Assembly: GCF_964194025.1 (NCBI RefSeq)
Contig: NC_134472.1
Span: forward strand, 22,878,001-22,942,000
Source of the DNA: Convolutriloba macropyga
Lineage: Eukaryota
Direction: 5' to 3'
Length of the DNA stretch: 64,000 bases
A program made the position numbers and the translations under genes. Positions 9,541-52,100 of the stretch are shown here, in pieces; position 1 is the first letter of the stretch; each line of letters opens with the position of its first letter. Under the pieces are notes generated by a model. That model was given only the letters and a program-made list of their open reading frames with translations, ran no database searches and was not told where the DNA came from.

Positions 9541-9658
9541 CCCCCCCCCCCCCACCACCACCACCACCACCACTCAAGCAGACTGCGATAGAATCTAGAC
9601 TCGCGCAAGTCCATCAAATGCAACTCGTGTGGTCTTACGCTCTTGTACAAAGGTGTTT
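9541..9658 (+). repeat. Left copy of the ~120-bp direct repeat flanking the Polinton
   Basis: C13-(ACC)n-ACTCAAGCAGACTGCG...AAAGGTGTTT recurs at 23867-23990. Confidence 0.95.
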
Positions 9659-9695
9659 AGTAGTAATAGTTAAGCAAGAGTGGGGGGGGGGGTAA
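9541..9695 (+). CDS. Putative last exon of the secreted-protein gene, interrupted by the Polinton
   Basis: TTATTTCAG acceptor at 9540, phase 1, compatible with the 4885 donor. Encodes poly-Pro-LKQTAIESRLAQVHQMQLVWSYALVQRC; the presumed original ending LKQLS* lies at 23989-24006. Confidence 0.5.
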
Positions 9696-9770
9696 AAGGA
9701 AGTACCTATGTATTAGGATTAGGTATAGCCCATTTTCGCTCAAATTCCAAGGAAGTACCTCACAGCATGA
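9659..9770 (+). repeat. Left terminal inverted repeat of the Polinton
   Basis: AGTAGTAATAGTTAAGCAAGAGT-G11-TAAAAGGAAGTACCTATGTATTAG...GTACCTCACAGCATGA; the part from the G-run onward matches the reverse complement of the right end. Confidence 0.9.
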
Positions 9771-13087: not shown

Positions 13088-13828
13088 ATGAACAAAATCA
13101 TTTCAACAAACGAACGAATTTTGATGTATCTTGTTGGTCCTTCCGGATCTGGAAAAACTGTTTTTATCAATGATATGCTACGAATGAAAACTTTTCAGCC
13201 ATCATTTGATCGAATTTTATACTTTTATAAGCACTTTCAGACAATTTACGACATAATGATGCAATCAATTGCAGACATAGAATTCATTCAGGGAGTTGAC
13301 TTTGATTTAATCGATAACTTACCCGCTGACGGCACTAAATATTTACTTATATTCGATGATTCATTGGACATTCTTTCCAAGTCTGAAAAGTTCAACGGAA
13401 TTGCGACAGCCGGTAGACATCGAAACCTAAATTGTGTATATATCAAGCATAATCTCTTCCACAAAAACAAAACTGGACGTGATGCCGAGCTGCAGACTAC
13501 TCACATTGTTTTGTTCAAATCACCGAGAGATGTGCAGCAGATTGATATCTTGGGAAGACAGCTAGGACTCGGAAGACAACTAAAACAGTGGTATGATGAT
13601 GCAACACAAGAACCGTATGGTCATCTTATGATTGATTTGAGACCATCTACACCTGATTTGTTGAGATACTGTTCAAATGTAACATCATTTCCCTCAGATT
13701 TCTTCGTACCGAACAGTCGTGCTCGTATTACTGATATTAATTATAAACGCACAGAACTATTATACTCTGAAGCTCTTTCGGAATCTCAGCAAGAAATTTC
13801 AACCAGCTTTCCTTCTAAATTGTCCTAA
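13088..13828 (+). CDS. A32/FtsK-like genome-packaging ATPase
   Basis: Walker A GPSGSGKT, Walker B LLIFDD, arginine motif GRHRN, FKSPRD and PYGHLMIDL. Confidence 0.95.
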   Translation: MNKIISTNERILMYLVGPSGSGKTVFINDMLRMKTFQPSFDRILYFYKHFQTIYDIMMQSIADIEFIQGVDFDLIDNLPADGTKYLLIFDDSLDILSKSEKFNGIATAGRHRNLNCVYIKHNLFHKNKTGRDAELQTTHIVLFKSPRDVQQIDILGRQLGLGRQLKQWYDDATQEPYGHLMIDLRPSTPDLLRYCSNVTSFPSDFFVPNSRARITDINYKRTELLYSEALSESQQEISTSFPSKLS

Positions 13829-14060: not shown

Positions 14061-14523
14061 GGTCAAAAAGTTTGTTCTTGTTCCAAAAGAACTGTGGAAG
14101 TCCAGAAAAGGGAAATTCCCGGAACCCTCCAGCGAGATCTATAAAAAGGAAGAAACTGTTTTTCCAGTTATCAAAAAAGCGAAAGAAGAAATTAGTTCCG
14201 AAAAAACCGATCGTCCACCTAAAGAACTTAAGACAGATCTGGAATTTCACTATAAGAACAGTCCCGAGACATTGGAAACTTTGAAAGAAATTTACGAAAA
14301 CAAACGATTGAAAGTTTCACTTTCCAATACAATTATTGTTGACAACGTTGACACAGGAGTTGATATAAAAACATTCCTTCATTCAATCAAATTGAAAAAC
14401 GCTCCAGTTGATCCAAACTATTTCCTAATTCTTAAAGTTCTAAATCTGAGACCACATCTGGTTAGAAACAACATTTTGAGGACACAGTATGGCTCAGACT
14501 GGTTCAATTACAGTATCAGATAG
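14053..14523 (+). CDS. Polinton hypothetical protein
   Basis: 156 aa, overlaps both neighbours as in compact viral gene arrays; KKFVLVP N-terminus. Confidence 0.7.
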   Translation: MSEVKKFVLVPKELWKSRKGKFPEPSSEIYKKEETVFPVIKKAKEEISSEKTDRPPKELKTDLEFHYKNSPETLETLKEIYENKRLKVSLSNTIIVDNVDTGVDIKTFLHSIKLKNAPVDPNYFLILKVLNLRPHLVRNNILRTQYGSDWFNYSIR

Positions 14524-15433
14524 AATCAAATTGCAGAAGTTGTATAAAGGGAAGGGATCAACAGCTTTCGGTTCTATCGACAACCTAACAAAATCAAGTG
14601 GAATAAGTCGCGAGAAAGTTACAGAATTTTTACAATCAAAAGACTCTTATACGAAGTACAAAGGGATCGGAAAAAAATTTCCCCGGCTAAATGCGCATGC
14701 TCGCTATATTGATGAGATTTGGTGTTTGGATCTTGCACAAATGGATAAACTATCACAATGGAACCGAGGTATCAACTTTTTACTCGTTACTGTCGATGTT
14801 TTTTCTCGATTCTTGCCAGTAGAAGCATTACGAAGCAAAGGAGCAGAGGGTGTGAAAGCAGCTTTTATCAAAATGTGTTCGAAAAAGAACGAACTCAATT
14901 TCCCGAAAAAATTATGGCTAGATCAAGGAAAAGAGTTTTTCGGAGATATGGCCAATTTCTGCGAGGATGTGGGAGTCAAATATTATCACACTTATAGTGA
15001 AACAAAAGTAGCTTTTGGCGAGAGAGCTATACGAACCCTGAAAAACTTAATTTACCGCTACCTGGAGGAAAAGGACACATTATCTTACATCAAAGACCTG
15101 CAAATGTTTGTTGACATCATCAACTCTAGAATAAATCGAAGTATTGGTTTGGCTCCCAAAAATGTAGTAAATGCTGACTTTTTGACTGTCATGTACAAGC
15201 GGATGAAACTACGAAAAAACAAAAAGCCTAATTTTAAAGTAGGTGATAAAGTTCTGTTGGTATTAGTAGGGCACAATTTTCGAAAAGGATATAAGCCTCA
15301 CTATACACATGAAATTTTCCTAATTCGAAAAATAAACACTTTGGCTCCTTTCCCGACTTACTTTGTTGTTGACCAGAAAGGAGAAAACATTGATGGAATC
15401 TTTTACGAGCAAGAATTGTCAAAAGTTAAATAA
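14489..15433 (+). CDS. Retroviral-like (rve) DDE integrase of the Polinton
   Basis: WCLDLAQMD, VDVFSRF, LWLDQGKEF, ERAIRTLK, FKVGDKV, FRKGYKP and FYEQEL motifs; no C-terminal chromodomain seen. Confidence 0.96.
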   Translation: MAQTGSITVSDRIKLQKLYKGKGSTAFGSIDNLTKSSGISREKVTEFLQSKDSYTKYKGIGKKFPRLNAHARYIDEIWCLDLAQMDKLSQWNRGINFLLVTVDVFSRFLPVEALRSKGAEGVKAAFIKMCSKKNELNFPKKLWLDQGKEFFGDMANFCEDVGVKYYHTYSETKVAFGERAIRTLKNLIYRYLEEKDTLSYIKDLQMFVDIINSRINRSIGLAPKNVVNADFLTVMYKRMKLRKNKKPNFKVGDKVLLVLVGHNFRKGYKPHYTHEIFLIRKINTLAPFPTYFVVDQKGENIDGIFYEQELSKVK

Positions 15434-16679: not shown

Positions 16680-17918
16680 ATGAATTCCTTATCTCACTCT
16701 ATGCTCGACTTTTTTGGGAAAGTTCCAATTTTAGACCCAATTCTTTGGTCCAATGAACAACAAATATTTCCAACAAATTCCTTAAACGAGTCAACAATCG
16801 AATTTCAATTGGAAACTGATCGTAATATTTTCACTGACTTGCGATCTACTCGATTATTCATCAGAGGAAGGGTTATTAAAGGCGATCGAACACGTTTGGA
16901 TAATGCCGAAGAAACATTATTGGTAAACAATGCTCTTCATTCACTTTTTTCTAATTGCGAAGTCTATCTAAACAATGAACAAGTTCACAGTGCCAATTCT
17001 CTTTATGCTCATCAAGCTTTTGTTTCTGCTGAGTTTTCAGGTACAAAAGGAACGAAGGAAAGCTTGTCTCAATGTCAAGGATATCGATACGAGATTGAGC
17101 CAAACGGTTTTAATAAAAGACCGTTTACAGATGTTGTTTTTCAAAAAGATAAAGATGAGTTTACTTTTTACGGTCCGTTGGCAATAGGTCTATTTGCTTG
17201 TGAAACTTTACTTCTCCCAAATGTCATCCTCAGACTGAAGTTGATCCGGTCTTCTCCAGCGTTCTATATGATCGATACTGGTGGGCTGAACTCTGAGGCC
17301 TTAATTTTGGAAGCTTGCCTTTTTACTAGACAGGTAGCAATCTCAGATAACTGGATGAGAAGTTTCAAAAGCAGACTGCTTCGAGAACCTGCCATATTTT
17401 ACTATAATGAAGAGCTTCCAAAGACGTTTATTATTCCCGCAGGACAGAACCAGTTTATACAAGAAAATATATTTTCAAACAAACCAATTCGAATGATTGA
17501 TATTGCTATGAATCTAAATAATGAGTTCAGTGGAACATACAACACGAATCCGTTCCATTTTCGTAAATTTGGTCTTCGGCAAGTTAAAATTGTGCGTGGG
17601 AATCAAACTATAGTCAACTTGAAAACAGAAAATCACGTGAGAGCTTATGCTGAAACAATGAAAGCACTCAAGTTTGATGATGACGGTCCTAACATTCAAT
17701 ACAAGGATTTTGAAAACCATTTTCATTTATTTTTCGATCTTACTTCAACACAGGAGGCCAATGTCGAAATGCATTTTCCTGATGTAGTTGGAGCAGGAAT
17801 TCGTTTAGAGCTCTACTTTGCTAACAATTTGAGCAATACTGTAGAATTATTTGTTAGTGGTGAACGTATAAGTTCAATTGCAATTGATAAGGAGGGATCA
17901 GTCACCAAAAATGGATAA
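16680..17918 (+). CDS. Major capsid protein (double jelly-roll hexon)
   Basis: LDFF...IEFQLE...NNALHSLFSNCEVYLN...LLPNV.LRLKL.RS...NPFHF...FDLT motifs of Polinton MCP; likely ATG at 16680. Confidence 0.93.
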   Translation: MNSLSHSMLDFFGKVPILDPILWSNEQQIFPTNSLNESTIEFQLETDRNIFTDLRSTRLFIRGRVIKGDRTRLDNAEETLLVNNALHSLFSNCEVYLNNEQVHSANSLYAHQAFVSAEFSGTKGTKESLSQCQGYRYEIEPNGFNKRPFTDVVFQKDKDEFTFYGPLAIGLFACETLLLPNVILRLKLIRSSPAFYMIDTGGLNSEALILEACLFTRQVAISDNWMRSFKSRLLREPAIFYYNEELPKTFIIPAGQNQFIQENIFSNKPIRMIDIAMNLNNEFSGTYNTNPFHFRKFGLRQVKIVRGNQTIVNLKTENHVRAYAETMKALKFDDDGPNIQYKDFENHFHLFFDLTSTQEANVEMHFPDVVGAGIRLELYFANNLSNTVELFVSGERISSIAIDKEGSVTKNG

Positions 17919-18545: not shown

Positions 18546-21210
18546 TTATAAATCTAAAGGAGTAGTGTGAATACCATCTTCACAGACTTTACGCTTGGGA
18601 TAAAAATATGACAGTCCCACTTTCTTTAGTTCATAGGTACAAACTTTCTTGTTGTCAACAACTCTGAAGCCACGATTTGTTGAATAAACTCGCTCCTCAT
18701 TGAAAAGAACTTTTCTATACTTGTTTAGGGGCTCCTCAATGTTGTTCTTGTTGAGTCCTTTACTTGATAGTTTAACTGTGTCTGTTTCCTCATCGTAGCA
18801 GCAGTACGTCTTTGAACAAAGAGCAATCATTTCAGAGCATCTAAATTCTTCCTTAAAAAGTCCCGGAGTTCTCTTGTCAAAGGCAGCATGTTTCCTGCAA
18901 CATTCTCGTGGGAAGAAATTGCTGCTAGAGTTTGCTGCAAAGTTATCATTGCAGTCGCTCTGTCTCATCCAGTACCACACTGATCGCATTTCTGGTCGAA
19001 TGATGTCTTCAATTTTTTCCTCACTAAGGGCCATGTAGAGACTGTCGGTATCCATTTCGATGAGTTCGTACTTGTTCTTATCACAGAAAGGGGTGAAGAA
19101 GTTGTATTTAAGTTGTAACATGGTGAGTTTGGCGTACTGGAGGATGAAGAAGCCTACAATGATTGGTTCTTTATGATCGATACGCGACTTGCTCATTTCT
19201 ACCTCATATATGTGCTCTGGTAGCTCATTCATAGTCTTGAAAAACCTATTGTTGATAAATTTGTCCACCTGTGATCCTTTCACGTACTTGGTATTCGTAT
19301 GTCGACTACGGTCCATGATCTGATATCCATACGAACTGTTTCCAATCAGCTTCATTGTCTCCGCAACGACTGTTGACTCCCTGTTCTGGTCTCCTTCGCG
19401 GCGGGCATCGACAACATTCTGAACAAATGTCTCAAAGCAGCGTCGGGGAGTGTATTGAAGAAACCAAAAGACGTCTTTCAGGATCACACCTTTTTCTAGA
19501 TAAAATAACAAAAGTGGCGTGATAACTGGTCCTCGTTCAAGCTTGAAACTGGAAATGAGCTTTTTTCTGGGTCTGGATAGTAATTTGTTGCGTTCTGCAA
19601 ACTCTTTCATATGGTCCCCAATATCATCTCGTCCCACTTCACAATTCTTGAAAATTGGAGGAACGTCTTCAAAGTAAGGATACATTTCCTCTGGGACTTC
19701 AAGACTACAATCGACGACACCAAACAGTTCTCCACGTTGAATTTTCTCAATGAGCGAGTGCTTGTTCATCGCTGGTTGGAAGGGATAATTTGACTTGAGA
19801 AAGTCTTCAACCCCATTTGTGTTTTTGCTCCTCCACTTCTTCCATTGACACTCCCAGATCTCTTCAACATTCAACCCCAATCCCTTCAGGTACTCTCTTC
19901 TATCATTGTCACGTTCTCTCCGCTTCAATCCGCTTTCAATGTCCTCGAAGAGAAGCGGTTTTTCCTCTTGACACGGACAAAAATGAAAGAAGCAACCCAT
20001 CGCTTCAAAAACCGTGTTGCAATGGTTACAAAACCCATCAACTAAATAAGGACCGAGCTTCTTTTGTTTCTTGTGTGTGAACTGGGTTTGTATTTTACAA
20101 TTGGGATGAACCTGTTGGAAGTAGTCCATGACCTGCTGTTCAAAGTAGCTTCTCCAGTTCCTGTTCGGATGAAATTTTTCAGTCTCTTCATTGTACTCCC
20201 ACTTTGTATAGGGTCCTGTTGGCATCTCTTTTGTCATGGAAAAAGGGTACAACTGACTGGCATCTATTCCGACGATGGACTTGCAAACGTTTTCTGACTC
20301 TCGAATTTTTGTTCCACCAACTTTTGCATACCTTGTAAAGATAATTGAGGGTCCCCCTGTTAGCCACTTTCGAATGTAATTACCATATTCTTTATCCTTC
20401 TCACAAAACGGAAAAAAAGCTGCATCTGTTGACGAATGAAGGAACCTGTTTGCCAAGTTGGGAAGAGTGTAGCCCAACTTCAACATGTCTACTTGTCTTG
20501 AGTGGTAAAAACTGATCATTTTCTTCATAGCCTCAAGTGTAGGTTCGACATCTTTGTTATTGTACCACATGAGGAAGTCACGAAACGTCTGCATACCTCT
20601 TCTTTCCCATATATTTTGGAGCTCCGAGTAATTTTCTTCGGCATTTTGTGGAACTTTCTTGAGTCTCAACTTCTTCAAAATTTCATCCTGCTCCATTCCA
20701 CCGTTTTTCAATTCCACAAACTTATTGTAATCGACTGAAAGAACGTTGTGATTCTTCAACTTGCTCCAAAAGCTGTCAATTGGTGGCAGTTGGGATACAT
20801 TCAACTTCTCAATACTGTCGAACCATTCATAGGGGAAGAAACCTTTCTCTTCACTCGCTCCATAGGCTTTTAGGAAGTTATCCAAAGTTGTCGCTCCTCC
20901 CAGGAAGTTTAAAATGTCCAGAAACTGTAAACCAAGAAAATTCATGCCAATATATTTATTCCCCATTCGAATCACTTTAGGAATAACGTTTTTTTCTATT
21001 AAGAGGTGATGCAGAAGATACTCTTTGATTAAGTTCAAATCGTACCTCGAACTGTTGAAACCAAACACAGGAATGGTGCTGTAATAGTGCTCAAAATCTT
21101 GTCTCAAGTTTGATAACATCTTGAGCTCACATCTCAGTCTCTGAATTTCAAGGTCTTCGTCTTCCTCGCCGTCAGGTTCCGCCTCGTTATCAATTAAGTC
21201 TTCCGCTCCG
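18546..21210 (-). CDS. Protein-primed family B DNA polymerase, N-terminally truncated, with a VSR-like nuclease insertion
   Basis: ExoII FNSSRYD, ExoIII YNNKDV, DASQLYP, KLIGNSSYG and MDTDS. The frame stays open upstream of M(21119) (GAEDLIDNEAEPDGEEDEDLEIQRLRCELK) until it meets the repeat array at ~21210. ExoI and the terminal-protein region are absent. Confidence 0.95.
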
Positions 21211-22112
21211 GTAAATGACCTTACTGAATTGTTAAGAGATTATCTTGCTAATCTTTTTCGTGAGAACAGCTTGGGTATCGTGCTGTGAGGTATATTATTG
21301 TCAATTGACATTTTCAAAGTGTAATATGTGAAAAGGTAAATGACCTTACTAAGAGATTATCTTGCTAATCCCTTTCGTGAGAACAGCTTGGGTATCATGC
21401 TGTGAGGAATATCTTTGGAATTTGACATTAGTAAAGTGTAGTATGAGAAAAGGTAAATGACCGTACTGATTTGTTGTTAAGGCACTATCTTGCTAATCCC
21501 CCTCGTGTGAACAGCTTGGGTATCGTGCTGTGAAGTACATTATTGGAATTTAAAATTAGAGAAGTGTAATAAGGGAAAAGGTAAATGACCTTATTATTTT
21601 GTTGCTAAGTCATATTCTTGCTAATCCCTTTCGTGTGAACAGCGTGGGTATCATGCTGTGAGCTACGTCTTTGGCATTAGTAATGTGTAATATGAGAAAA
21701 GGTAAATGACCGAAATAGATTGTTAAGGTTTTATTTTGCTAATCTCTGTCGTGAGAATAAATTGAGTTTCATGCTGGTTCGAAATGAGTAGTTATTAAGA
21801 AATTCCCCCTCGTGTGAACAGCTTGGGTATCGTGCTGTGAAGTACATTATTGGAATTTAAAATTAGAGAAGTGTAATAAGGGAAAAGGTAAATGACCTTA
21901 TTATTTTGTTGCTAAGTCATATTCTTGCTAATCCCTTTCGTGTGAACAGCGTGGGTATCATGCTGCGAGCTACGTCTTTGGCATTAGTAATGTGTAATAT
22001 GAGAAAAGGTAAATGACCGAAATAGATTGTTAAGGTTTTATTTTGCTAATCTCTGTCGTGAGAATAAATTGAGTTTCATGCTGGTTCGAAATGAGTAGTT
22101 ATTAAGAAATTC
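21210..22112 (-). repeat. Right-arm tandem array of the same ~120-bp unit in inverted orientation, with an internal 307-bp duplication
   Basis: Repeated GGTAAATGACC...CTAATCCC..CGTGwGAACAGCTTGGGTATCrTGCTGTGA; 21498-21805 is nearly identical to 21805-22112. Confidence 0.93.
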
Positions 22113-22348
22113 AACTTCTTATCTTTTTTACAAACGAAATTTTATTCAGCTGCGGGAAACATTGTCTTCCTTTGTTAAATTTGAGACTCAAATAAGTTGT
22201 AAATTACACTTAATTACACTTAATTTTTCATCCGGGGTTCGAGTCCGGGTGGGATCGTCTTTTGCTAAAACTGATTTTGTGTTAATAAATTAGGATGTGA
22301 TTACGTTATGATCCATTATAAATATGATTAAAATCTAAGTCATCTCAA

Positions 22349-22420
22349 GTACCAATGGTTCAGTGGTAGTATCTGAGACTCCCATCCGGGGGTCCCGGGT
22401 TCGATCCCGGGTGGGGTCCT
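22349..22420 (+). ncRNA. tRNA-Gly(CCC)-like sequence / Pol III type-2 promoter inside the Polinton (not a canonical tRNA)
   Basis: A box TGGTTCAGTGG (22356-22366), CT-CCC-AT loop, B box GGTTCGATCCC (22398-22408) with a paired T arm; acceptor and anticodon stems pair poorly. Confidence 0.65.
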
Positions 22421-22452
22421 CTTGTGTTGTTCAATGGTTTCTCGGCTGAAAA

Positions 22453-22618
22453 TCTGGTGTACATTGGCGAGCATTAGCCGGCGGGGTTTTCTATATAGAG
22501 TCTGATAGTTGCATGGGTATATGTGATAGGTAAGACGGGAGTTGACACATAGCGCATATCACATATACTCTAAGTGGCTTTCAGACTCGCAGAAAACCTT
22601 CAGCCATCAATGTCCAGA
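22453..22618 (+). ncRNA. Long imperfect RNA hairpin downstream of the tRNA-like element
   Basis: Pairings 22483-92/22591-600, 22498-505/22581-88, 22507-12/22574-79, 22515-28/22557-70 and 22453-67/22607-18; non-Watson-Crick pairs within these helices are G-U on the + strand. Confidence 0.6.
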
Positions 22619-23137
22619 AGCCCTAATGAAACTATTTTCTTTCCATTAAAAAACCCATTTTTTCCGAAATTTGACACCTATTGTACCCCCACATCATCCT
22701 TAGAATGATACCATTCATCAGGAATAAACTGTATTCAACAACTAACATCTATTATGAAAAAAAAATTTGAAACTCTAAACTTAAAACACAAGTGTCTTCA
22801 GCTCTAAATTATGCACATTTCATTAGCAGATTGAATTCTGTCAGATATTTTGTTTTTCTGTATAGAACACCAAACTGCTGCGAGTATGTCGAAAGACTTT
22901 TGAAATACAAAACAGAAATACTCACTTGTAAGTTTTCCCAATTTCATTTTCGACTACACATAGTAGTTTGATTATTGTCAGATATTTTTTTATTCTGTAC
23001 AGATAATCAAATCACTAGGGGTAAGTCGAACCAGCGACTTTGGGGTTTGTTTATGTTTTTGGTTTTTTTGTGAACCGTCTGGTCCTTTTGTTATTTTTTT
23101 TGGTTTTTTTTTATTTTTTTTCTATTTTTAGGCTGAT

Positions 23138-23362
23138 CTAAATCAGATCCAGATCAACTAAGTTCTTGTTGAGCACCTTGCAAATGGCCTTGCAGTTTCT
23201 ATATTTAACTGCTCGGCCAGTGCGTTTGGCTACTTGTTTGCGAACACCGGGACGGCCCCCGGTTCTCTTAGCCATTTGAGGCCTGCTGAATTTGGGAGTG
23301 GGAGGAGAACCTCCCCAGTCAGAGACTGGTTCCTCCTTGATAGGTGTAGTTGGCAAACTCAT
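23138..23362 (-). CDS. 74-aa Polinton protein with a histone H3-tail-like segment and a SUMO consensus motif
   Basis: RPQMAKRTGGRPGVRKQVAK compared with H3 [22 protein letters not shown]; IKEE motif; AAAAATG start context, TATA and initiator upstream, AATAAA downstream; GC-richer than its flanks. Confidence 0.72.
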   Translation of the reverse strand: MSLPTTPIKEEPVSDWGGSPPTPKFSRPQMAKRTGGRPGVRKQVAKRTGRAVKYRNCKAICKVLNKNLVDLDLI

Positions 23363-23405
23363 TTTTAGCAAAAATTCAACAACAATTTTGTTAACAAAAG
23401 AACCA

Positions 23406-23440
23406 GAATGAAATGTGATTTTGTGTTGCAGCTATTTATA
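23406..23440 (-). promoter_or_regulatory. TATA box plus initiator for the H3-tail-like ORF
   Basis: Minus strand TATAAATA (23440-23433) about 30 nt upstream of TCATTC (23411-23406). Confidence 0.62.
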
Positions 23441-23785
23441 CTCATCCCAAATACACAAGTGTGCATGGATTAATGCTCGGAGATTAACTCACACCAAAAC
23501 TTTTACATTTTTAACCAAATTCTCACCCCCACACAGTATGAGCCATCTATCATAACAGTATGTCATTTATTAACACCCACACAAAAATGAACCATTCAAT
23601 AATTTTTAATTAAAACACACTGTTTATCTATATGAGTTTCTCATCTTAGTTCATTTAAATCACTACAAGCACTTAATCCCCTAATGACTAAAACAATCTT
23701 TTCTCACGCTACAGTAAAACTTAATCCTTTGTAAACAAAATATTGACAAGAAAAAATGGACAAAAGTGACTACGAAAATACCGGT

Positions 23786-23880
23786 GAGTCATGCTGTGAG
23801 GTACATCTTTGGAAATTGGAGGGTAGGAGGCTATACCTAATGTTAATACATAGGTACTTCCTTTTACCCCCCCCCCCCCA
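23786..23880 (-). repeat. Right terminal inverted repeat, lacking the outer ~22 bp
   Basis: CATGCTGTGAGGTAC...GGCTATACCTAAT..TAATACATAGGTACTTCCTTTTA-C13 is the reverse complement of the left end, but the expected terminal ...TTGCTTAACTATTACTACT is absent. Confidence 0.88.
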
Positions 23881-23990
23881 CCACCACCACCACCACCACC
23901 ACCACTCAAGCAGACTGCGATAGAATCTAGACTCGCGCAAGTCCATCAAATGCAATTCGTGTGGTCTTACGCTCTTGTACAAAGGTGTTT
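23867..23990 (+). repeat. Right copy of the ~120-bp direct repeat flanking the Polinton
   Basis: Matches 9541-9658 except for two extra CCA units and one C/T substitution (caactcg vs caattcg). Confidence 0.95.
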
Positions 23991-49187: not shown

Positions 49188-52100
49188 AGAACTCTTGCGA
49201 AATTTTCTTTAAATTGAGTAACAGTGGCTACTTGAATACATGTGAAAATCTGATTTGAGCATTAAATTGATGAGAGTTATTTAGGGTCCTTATTGGTGAG
49301 TTGTATTATTTTAATCAGTGGTTGTCTTTGACTCTGTTGATATAGCCTTCTGATTTTGCTTTGTTCTTGATGTTTTTAAGTTGTATTTACTATACAGGAA
49401 GTTATAATTAAATTATTCAAAATCGCTTGTCTTAACTATTGCCTGAAATGTGGAACTTTCAAATTTTTTAATTGCTCTCGAACGAAGTTTGAAGCAATTA
49501 TTGTTAACATGTTGGTCTTTTTATCCAAAATTTTTGCTTGACCGTTTGTTCTAGAACATTCTGTGATTTCTTAAGTGAGTTTTTCAAGCTTCGCTTCTTC
49601 GTTTTGAGTGATTTCAATTGCTTTCATTCTGAAATGAAATTTGTTGCTAATATAAATGTGAATTTTAGCGGCTGAGTAGCACCAAAAAATTTTAAGCTGC
49701 ACCCTAAGTTAAGTTGCTCCCAGCCCGTCGTTCGAGAGCATTTCATCCGACGTTAGTTGGTTTATGTTATTTTTGCTCAAACATTTAAATATACCAAGCA
49801 ACTGGTCTTGTTGTGAACTGCGCTCTTCATTTTATGCAATTAAAATACGAATGATCTTTTCGATTCACTTTTTGGCGTTTAATGTTGCGTTATCTAACAT
49901 TCAGATTTTTGAGATCTGAACTCATTTTCTGCCGAAAGACAAATAAGACTGTAAATTACTTGTTTAATTGCTCTCAAACAAAGTTTGACAGAATTGCTGC
50001 ATTATGTAGTTTTTTAAAAAAATTCTCCTCTGTGAGTTAACTTTCCATCGAGTCTGTTGTTTGAGAAATTTGTTTGACGGTAGTCGGTTTTTATGTTTTT
50101 CGCTGTGCACAGGTCTTAATTTTCTCGCTTGACTTTGACTTAAAATCACTGTTGCAATTGAATGAAAGTCATTGAACCTATTTACGTAATATAGTGAATG
50201 AGTTCAAAGTAAAAATACCAAAATCATAATAAAGTCAGCAAGCGAGAACATAATTAAGTCAGGTTGAAGGCCAGAAGAGCAAATGCAAGTTCATTAGTAT
50301 CGAAGTTGTAATCCTTCAATTTAGGAGCTGAATTCTGAATAATTGTGAAATCTAACTAAAACTGCTCTTTAAATTAGGAAATTATAAGGCTGTCAGTTTG
50401 TCTCTTTTTTTCTTTTCATTTTTCTATCCTCATAGATGTCACGGGCAGTCATTAGTGGGTGTTTCCCAACAGCCTACCGGCTATTTATTCAAGTTGTAGT
50501 TCTCGATCAAAAAGCTCGAGATATTATTCGTGACGTTACTGCCTTTCGCATGACAGCAGGCTTTAATCACAGTCTCAGCTCATTTAGTTTTAATTTGTTT
50601 GCGGTTTAAGAATCAAACCATGTAGTCTGTGTTACGGTTTATGATTCGAACGCGTTTTTCTATTTGCTTTTTGTTGATTTCCTCCAGACAATCGGTGCGT
50701 TTTGTATTTCCGAGATAATGAAAAATTACTTCGAAAACCATTGCTTCAAATTTTGTTTCAGTCAGAGGGAAGGAGAAGAGGTCGCTAAAGAAAATAGATT
50801 CTAAATTCAAAAGCTGATAAACTAAAATTAACAAAAAAAACAATCACTAAAAATGATTGATGAACTATGACAAATTTTTCGTATAAAAGTTCCTCAATAA
50901 ATACTTTCTTTCAAATCAATAACAAATGAAATTAAACATATCCACATTGTTTAATTTTTGTTAGCTGAGTTTGAGAGAAAGCCAATGAAATATTACGGCT
51001 ATATTAAAAAGCATGTTAGTCATGCGTTCATGATATCTACAGGCGAAGGACTTTTATAAAAACTGATCAATAATGGATTAAAATTGATGAGGTTAACTGG
51101 ATAGAAATTAAAGTTATGGAATTATCTAAACTAAGTAAGGTTAAGAAATAACAGAGTGTTCAATTATTCAGTTAACACTATTTCTGATATTATTTTAGTA
51201 ATCACTGATTTAGTTAAACAGTCGTACAACCTTTTGACTACAAACTTCTCTCAATTTTTAAGACCGCCGTCGCTTTTTTTACACAAAAGAATGGGCGTCG
51301 CTGTTTTACCCCACGCACAACGAAAAAGTTATGAATACATTAGCAAGCTAGAATATGGAGACGTTAACACGGCCGATAACAAAGGTGGTACTTTAGCCAA
51401 ATTATCACCGTATTGTCGCTCTGACGATATTTGGTCCGGAAACAATACAAATAATTGTCTTGTGTTACATTACAACAGCTGGTGTGGTTTTTGCCAAACA
51501 GTTTTGCACGTCTTTCACACCGTGGGAAGTATAATGACGTCGTCATTTCCAAATGTGACTGATTTCGTCAAGGTTAATTCTGGTTTGGAACTCGTGCCGA
51601 CGATACACCGCGTGAACAAATTCCCAATAAAAGTGTTTTACCCTGCGGCCGAATTTAACCAGAAAGAGTTTATTCTTTATGACGAGGGAAAAGTTATCCA
51701 AAGGGTAAATAGAGTGAAAAATTTCACGTATAAGTATCCAGAAGATATCGCGATTACAGTGCCTAATTTGTATGGGTTTGTCAGGTTGCATTCTGGCGTT
51801 TATTGAAGAACTCTTGCGAAATTTTCTTTAAATTGAGTAACAGTGGCTACTTGAATACATGTGAAAATCTGATTTGAGCATTAAATTGATGAGAGTTATT
51901 TAGGGTCCTTATTGGTGAGTTGTATTATTTTAATCAGTGGTTGTCTTTGACTCTGTTGATATAGCCTTCTGATTTTGCTTTGTTCTTGATGTTTTTAAGT
52001 TGTATTTACTATACAGGAAGTTATAATTAAATTATTCAAAATCGCTTGTCTTAACTATTGCCTGAAATGTGGAACTTTCAAATTTTTTAATTGCTCTCGA

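Follow-up and report, generated by a model that had tools for sequence, protein, structure and literature searches.

A tRNA-headed hairpin unit at the right end of a Polinton

The 64,000-nucleotide stretch of DNA analysed here (the window) contains a Polinton/Maverick copy which carries, close to its right end, a predicted Pol III transcription unit composed of a tRNA-derived head, a long imperfect fold-back and several oligo-T stops (Table 1). Tandem repeats of ~120 bp and an outer inverted repeat are found at both ends of the element, and ahead of its right repeats this copy is ~2.8 kb shorter than its sister copies. The RNA unit resides in a 1.7-kb module that is present at the right end only, the left end being without it, and that displays a TCATGCTG motif at each of its junctions. 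Four DNA-type contig sets from one study cover this module of the window; they attest to its presence only and do not provide independent support. A search of sequencing runs listed no RNA data set for it, which speaks neither for nor against transcription. A 118-bp stretch of host flank occurs twice, once on each side of the Polinton (9541–9658 and 23873–23990, 97% identity). This duplication is far longer than the short target duplications usually seen, and the Polinton looks truncated at its right terminus.

Table 1 Features of the Polinton copy and of the RNA unit in its right-end module (positions in the window).
Feature	Position	Strand	Description
Polinton/Maverick copy hosting the RNA unit	9659–23876		Gene content and ends
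Packaging ATPase	13088–13828		Pfam Pox_A32
Integrase	14489–15433		Pfam rve
Capsid-sized ORF	16680–17918		Size, motifs and gene order; not a Pfam match
Polymerase-B-like ORF	18546–21119		Size, motifs and gene order; not a Pfam match
Right subterminal ~120-bp tandem repeats	21210–22112		Include a recent 307-bp duplication, 21497–22112
Accessory module, 1.7 kb	22086–23780		Splits a repeat unit in the right terminal region; holds the RNA unit
Decayed duplicate of the head's 3′ half	22226–22265	+	B box without A box; 82% to 22393–22426; less conserved
tRNA-derived head	22349–22420	+	Predicted internal promoter of type 2 for Pol III; lacks the cloverleaf of a tRNA
A box	22356–22367	+	
B box	22398–22408	+	
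Long imperfect fold-back, ~205 nt	22433–22636	+	73 predicted pairs, 9 of them G-U; starts ~12 nt past the head
Internal T4	22487–22490	+	Possible leaky Pol III stop
pri-miRNA-sized upper stem	22498–22588	+	34 nt on the 5′ arm (22498–22531) above a 5x2 internal loop; ~22-nt loop
Terminal oligo-T stops	22635–22663	+	T4-C-T3 at 22635–22642; T6 at 22658–22663
Second hairpin in the module	22950–23030		z −7; 7/80 lineage-fixed changes, sequence not frozen
74-aa basic ORF	23138–23362	−	Faces the RNA gene; AATAAA at 23115 on the ORF's strand
Outer terminal inverted repeat	23781–23876		Matches the left end at 9682–9770

The head keeps the promoter boxes of a tRNA gene but not its fold

The head carries the single A/B box pair that a relaxed pattern detects on either strand of the 64-kb window. 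Its A-to-B span of 49 nt equals that found in a host tRNA-Gly(GCC) array, and the anticodon position is occupied by CCC (22381–22383). Without gaps, the head matches host tRNA-Gly(GCC) at 46/72 positions, concentrated in the A and B boxes, and a decayed Gly(CCC)-like copy of the host at 45/72, again mostly within the boxes. ARAGORN, run at its default settings on the window and on the copies scanned, calls no tRNA; with the threshold lowered, a pseudo-tRNA with broken stems is reported at the head. The intact acceptor, anticodon and T stems of a cloverleaf, by which a tRNA gene is defined, are absent, and the 5′ head has no notable fold (z −1.1). An earlier note on this DNA had pointed out A and B boxes at tRNA spacing and a likeness to tRNA-Gly(CCC) without a proper cloverleaf, and both observations are borne out.

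The fold-back contains a stem of pri-miRNA dimensions

The same note had described a fold-back of ~165 nt that starts about 30 nt downstream of the head and has more than 45 paired positions and a 28-nt loop. The fold-back is indeed present and its pairing is more extensive than was claimed, with 60 pairs predicted for 22452–22618 alone and 73 over its full extent; however, it is longer and starts closer to the head (Table 1). The loop measures ~22 nt (22532–22553) and reaches 28 nt when weak apical pairs are disregarded. The T4 was correctly placed, whereas the run reported as a T7 at ~22657 is a T6.

For the core of the fold-back (22484–22600), the predicted folding energy is −47.3 kcal/mol (z −7.6), and none of 200 shuffled sequences folds as well. 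In a scan of 1,596 sliding windows of 160 nt, the window with the hairpin has the highest composition-corrected folding excess (−22.1, the next being −15.3), and its shuffle z of −6.8 is almost tied with that of the window at 50841. By strand, the z of the core is equal (−6.6 and −6.8), while the full fold-back prefers the plus strand (−6.3 versus −3.7 on the minus strand). Within the full-length RNA, the core pairs have a mean predicted probability of 0.90 and the outer pairs of 0.94. Further strong hairpins are located outside the Polinton at 50841–51000 (z −6.7) and 1681–1840 (z −5.9); both are probably parts of host repeats.

The upper stem of the core has the dimensions of a canonical pri-miRNA stem (~35 bp plus an apical loop). 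Drosha substrates are described as having a ~35-bp stem optimum and as following a 13-nt cropping rule (PMC7174388). Judged by eye, none of the basal UG, apical UGU, CNNC and mGHG motifs stands at what we take to be its usual place. The predicted 3′ arm starts (22557–22563) like what we take to be the seed of the miR-2/K-box family; a genome search with the Rfam mir-2 model gave no match among the 60 of 246,061 candidates that were scored. An Rfam scan of 21500–23500 with E values up to 10 produced no match at the gathering score and six matches at chance level. An RNA terminated at the internal T4 would be ~142 nt long and without a significant fold (z −0.1), and one ending at the terminal stops is predicted to be ~290–315 nt long.

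The unit is an accessory of one Polinton subfamily

The RNA unit has 21 matches in the genome, and a search with the head alone returns the same 21. Twenty of them adjoin the subterminal repeat of the Polinton family and the remaining one its terminal repeat. Most copies have polymerase or ATPase sequence nearby; a pair on C12 has terminal sequence but no core gene within the 20 kb examined, and nine copies sit in a rearranged tandem array on C9. This array (C9:47.09–47.11 Mb) consists of about nine ~2.1-kb copies of the right-end module that belong to more than one lineage and contain template-switch-like changes in the hairpin. Complete pattern scans of the genome yielded 17 hairpin-arm and 10 head matches, all at Polinton-end copies, and one extra match, which is an unrelated, decayed host tRNA-Gly(CCC)-like copy; these scans detected no hairpin copy away from Polinton ends. 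Exact-pattern scans of viral and of metagenome contigs gave 0 and 0 matches. In other Polinton families, whose ends were partly covered, no such A/B pair was found by pattern in 24 stretches and no similarity by BLAST in 18.

The Polinton family itself comprises about 100 ATPase copies at ≥85% identity, and the module with the unit is missing from 20/20 right ends of the closest sisters. The insertions that do carry the unit include old (15–19% diverged) and young (1–4%) ones. Its confinement to Polinton ends and its absence from most sisters identify the unit as subfamily cargo, as opposed to a dispersed SINE or a core component of the Polinton. Because most family members are without it, we classify it as an accessory of one Polinton subfamily.

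The earlier assignment of the unit to the Polinton is thereby upheld, as 21/21 copies adjoin the family's repeats. The earlier note had also considered that the segment might be a host SINE present at many non-Polinton loci and absent from sister Polintons. The absence from the closest sister ends is real, but no non-Polinton copies were found. The host repeat at ~36045, which had been noted as loosely similar, resembles the unit only weakly: its local alignment score of 44 is barely above those of shuffled sequences (mean 28, maximum 45 of 500), and a host tRNA scores 69. A dispersed tRNA-SINE identity was rejected on the grounds that, although an A/B-box head is present, every copy lies beside Polinton repeats and none is independently dispersed.

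Purifying selection on the block in the mobile lineage

Changes among the copies were split into those private to one locus, which represent post-insertion decay, and those common to lineages, and a change was counted as lineage-fixed when it separates the young group from three or more old loci. Near-duplicates were left out, and the A2 alignment thus comprises 15 of the 21 copies and the module alignment 16 copies with the block plus C635b, which is without it; the C4 copies were left out of the lineage-fixed count. Private changes are uniform, with 196/2516 in the unit and 962/11413 outside (P 0.32), so that the block does not owe its conservation simply to a lower mutability in the host. 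Lineage-fixed changes amount to 1/290 in the unit versus 99/1362 in the rest of the module. This contrast overstates the effect because the module is a mosaic, the synonymous divergence of its small ORF being 0.38 versus 0.075 at the four-fold sites of the polymerase, and stricter yardsticks were therefore used.

The depletion persists relative to the immediate flanks (22/536, P 7e-4) and to the upstream flank alone (10/252, P 0.004). Under the same two-locus criterion, the unit displays 1–2 changes in 262–282 sites versus 12/160 at polymerase four-fold sites (P about 2e-4). The unit changes as slowly as codon positions 1+2 of the polymerase (8/1170), and the lack of a difference from all polymerase sites pooled (15/1395, P 0.33) carries the same message. 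No lineage-fixed change is found in the 219 sites of 22422–22640, which span the fold-back, and the 50-nt bins covering 22336–22685 hold one change altogether. This frozen stretch matches the predicted transcription unit.

On the branch shared by the C12 pair, the unit is again depleted of changes (3/253 versus 38/570, P 4e-4; hairpin 0/183), and the changes in the ORF on this branch fall preferentially at third positions. No depletion in the unit is seen on the branch common to the C9 copies (19/280 versus 52/1255). Mismatches, bulges and G-U pairs of the fold-back are retained on both active branches, and conservation of its loop and outer stems equals that of the putative mature arm. Private decay has reached ~8% in old copies versus 1–2% in young ones, so that time has passed while the block changed at 1/290 sites. 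Thus, in the mobile lineage the block evolves under purifying selection, and the unit is a real, constrained, subfamily-specific non-coding unit.

These data bear on the possibility that a captured tRNA-SINE-like or palindromic fragment travels in the subfamily as a neutral passenger, its low divergence being due to recombination among lineages. The degenerate tRNA head with its partial duplicate, as in SINEs, the mosaic structure of the module, its patchy distribution and the template-switch-like changes in the C9 copies are all compatible with such an origin. However, apart from the one decayed host tRNA-Gly(CCC)-like copy, neither head nor hairpin was found away from Polinton ends, on two branches the divergence of the unit falls short of every neutral yardstick, the most conservative one included, and the gap in private decay between old and young copies shows that there was time for changes to accumulate. 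The neutral-passenger explanation is already disfavoured by these observations, and we regard it as improbable.

Covariation is not seen and the G-U bias is weak

The earlier note had stated that departures from complementarity are G-U on the plus strand. When the arms are aligned strand-neutrally, 5–6 transitions of the G-U type are indeed counted versus 0–2 of the A-C type, and the full fold-back prefers the same strand; however, the excess has a one-sided P of 0.03–0.23, 5–8 transversion mismatches are also present, and the core folds equally on both strands. The covariation across Polinton copies that had been put forward as a check failed to appear: 28/118 changed pairs are kept versus 28% expected by chance, the covariation score of 0.039 is equalled or exceeded in 290/500 shuffles, and RNAalifold does not recover the hairpin. 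Covariation is expected to be missing if the active lineage is frozen and the old copies are decaying, but its absence leaves the RNA structure without comparative support.

In the C9 copies, 2-nt deletions in one arm are matched in the other and the apical palindrome has been perfected, and one C9 unit displays a double change that restores pairing. DNA template switching is described to homogenise hairpin arms and can give such patterns (PMC8604942), and for this reason we do not count the C9 arm changes as RNA covariation.

An alternative is that the block acts as DNA, with the A/B boxes forming a TFIIIC-bound boundary or promoter near the element end, any RNA being a 142-nt by-product, and the inverted repeat serving as a single-stranded DNA hairpin or a protein site. 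Its location inside the terminal region, the second B box upstream, the tRNA gene kept in both ends by another Polinton family, the equal folding of the core on both strands, the T4 that precedes the core and the absence of covariation would all fit this scheme, and a cis effect of the Pol III promoter has been raised even for the TMERs (tRNA-miRNA-encoded RNAs) of murine gammaherpesvirus 68 (MHV68; PMC4337559). Yet the constraint runs 220 nt beyond the B box and stops at the T-runs, the arms have stayed imperfect on the active branches instead of becoming homogenised, the plus strand is preferred by the full fold-back, and the block is missing from most family members. Taken together, these features make a purely DNA-level function quite unlikely.

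Comparison with known Pol III hairpin RNAs

In the TMERs of MHV68, a 5′ tRNA-like module with an internal Pol III promoter is followed by one or more hairpins and by internal and terminal oligo-T stops (PMC4337559, PMC8223928). By its sequence alone, the unit resembles them in its gene-internal A/B boxes, downstream hairpin, alternative oligo-T stops and residence in a virus-like element. Unlike theirs, its head is not a cloverleaf, and an overlapping pattern scan finds one A box where TMERs are described to have three overlapping ones (PMC8223928). Furthermore, the unit is a single gene with one ~205-nt fold-back whose core starts 60–75 nt past the head, a distance at which RNase Z cannot define the end of a small RNA. 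On the best reading, the unit would work like an MHV68 TMER but is not one.

Adenovirus VA RNA is organised into apical stem, central domain and terminal stem, with box A within the latter (PMC7589676). Akin to VA RNA I and II as they are portrayed there, the unit is a single A/B-box, Pol III-type gene with a long imperfect stem that, as predicted, Dicer could cut; unlike them, it has no Rfam match, its promoter lies 5′ of the stem, it is about 300 nt long and it is a subfamily accessory. Identity as a VA RNA was rejected, there being no match to a VA family model and no VA layout in the predicted fold.

The Pol III pre-miRNAs of bovine leukaemia virus (BLV) are compact and bypass Drosha (PMC12498455). 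The parallel, going by that description, is an integrating element that employs type 2 promoters to produce hairpin RNAs from host chromatin, as is predicted for our unit; the core of our unit, however, has long arms on either side and would have to be cropped. In 8,300 genomes of Polinton-like viruses and virophages, 558 tRNA and 10 miRNA-family matches are reported (PMC12220804). These, too, are Polinton-type elements carrying a Pol III or non-coding RNA gene, but in the account given there the genes are library or ARAGORN matches read as translational tRNAs, whereas in our unit a degenerate head is joined to a hairpin, with no match to any family. Among the titles and abstract openings covered by our literature search, most of them from outside the subscription journals, no tRNA-headed hairpin RNA of an animal Polinton was found.

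Finally, tRNA-derived SINEs consist of a degenerate tRNA head, in which the A and B boxes are retained, and of a body unrelated to it. The unit shares this architecture, but its 21 copies moved with the Polinton, no dispersed ones were found, and it is under purifying selection.

A model for the function of the unit

Combining these findings, we propose that the unit is likely a Pol III RNA gene whose predicted hairpin would be cut by host Drosha and Dicer into a ~22-nt regulatory RNA, a reading to which we assign a probability of roughly 0.45. TFIIIC and Pol III would start transcription near 22349, with the head serving as a promoter and not as a tRNA. Some polymerases would pass the T4 at 22487 and stop at 22635–22663, giving an RNA of ~290–315 nt; passage through a T4 and the use of more than one stop have been reported for Pol III and for TMERs (PMC8223928, PMC4337559). 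The upper stem with its 34-nt arm would be cropped ~12–13 nt above the basal loop and then diced, with a predicted duplex of about 22510–22530 / 22557–22578. The resulting small RNA, or an abundant precursor that occupies the pathway, might dampen host defence or regulate host genes to the benefit of the element. One Drosha-like and two Dicer-like loci are present in the host. The Drosha-like gene (C5:38.03 Mb) is a single, apparently intronless open frame of 2,231 codons, which is unusually long.

Besides the selection on the block, whose frozen stretch coincides with the predicted transcription unit, the high pairing probability of the core and the Drosha-like and Dicer-like loci of the host, we count for this model (i) the length of the modelled upper stem, which fits the ~35-bp optimum, (ii) the imperfections kept on both active branches, whereas template switching homogenises arms, and (iii) the presence, in another Polinton family, of an intact tRNA-Met-type gene near the ends, which indicates that capture of Pol III genes recurs in this genome. 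We count against it that (i) the T4 ahead of the core could end most transcripts before the core is reached, (ii) the loop and outer stems are conserved to the same degree as the putative mature arm, which is not required of a plain miRNA, (iii) covariation is absent, the G-U bias weak and the minus-strand folding of the core equal, (iv) the pri-miRNA motifs are misplaced and the C9 copies, with their arm-perfecting changes, are undepleted, and (v) the unit is absent from 20/20 sister ends and the module is a mosaic.

Alternatively, the Pol III RNA might act at full length, decoying Dicer-2-type proteins or other sensors of dsRNA in a VA-RNA-like manner, and not as the source of a single miRNA. 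The entire 290-nt block is frozen, loop and outer helices included, the outer pairs are confidently predicted (mean probability 0.94), the host possesses two Dicer-like loci, and the tRNA-like module of a TMER is described as able to carry function on its own (PMC4337559). Nevertheless, neither the VA family of Rfam nor any other is matched at the gathering score, the promoter head stands outside the long stem whereas box A of VA RNA sits in the terminal stem, and the core has pri-miRNA dimensions. A decoy role is on balance unlikely, if still worth serious consideration.

Polintons have been argued to be endogenous viruses, and little is known about how they deal with their hosts; their adenovirus relatives use RNA to manage host silencing or immunity. 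Starting from the preferred model of a processed Pol III hairpin RNA, we tentatively suggest, at somewhat less than even odds, that animal Polintons make Pol III small RNAs of their own. A captured tRNA promoter, a pri-miRNA-like hairpin and a convergent small basic protein would then form a host-manipulation cassette at the element end, corresponding, in endogenous form, to the TMERs of herpesviruses and the VA RNAs of adenoviruses. The unit itself, in all likelihood a gene for a Pol III hairpin RNA, appears from its sequence to be a variation on a known viral strategy. Constrained as strongly as polymerase codon positions 1+2, such a non-coding gene offers a concrete handle on whether Polintons use RNA to cope with host silencing or immunity. 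Furthermore, as only a minority of copies carry the unit, natural comparisons with and without it are available inside one genome. Since no Rfam family covers the unit, standard annotation would miss such genes.

Neighbouring features and tRNA genes of other Polinton families

The small basic ORF of the module accumulated 20 synonymous changes at 53 sites versus 14 non-synonymous changes at 169 (dN/dS about 0.2) and is under purifying selection. Relatives of this ORF are found at the ends of a distant Polinton family, in which the head and hairpin are absent from the end examined. Its most conserved stretch resembles what we take to be the N-terminal tail of histone H3, a resemblance recovered neither by phmmer versus the PDB nor by Pfam.

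The second hairpin lies between the RNA gene and the ORF and has a direct-repeat relative at 22824–22893. One both-sides change is common to seven old copies, and the hairpin folds far better in its young form (−28 kcal/mol) than in the old one (about −16 kcal/mol).

Other Polinton families carry a tRNA-Met(CAT), presumably of the initiator type, near their ends (L126, 8245–8316, minus strand; L128, 4862–4936, minus strand; L137-L163). In the L126 family, ARAGORN calls a tRNA in 25 of the 27 copies examined, 23 of them as Met and often in inverted pairs. The first T-run is located ~300 nt downstream of this tRNA-Met, the trailer being without a notable fold (z −0.7), and in most of the 90–92% copies the gene is better conserved than its flanks. 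The tRNA-Gly(GCC) genes of the host form a large tandem array at C2:6.51–6.57 Mb with many variants, some of which have changed anticodons, such as AGA on a Gly body.
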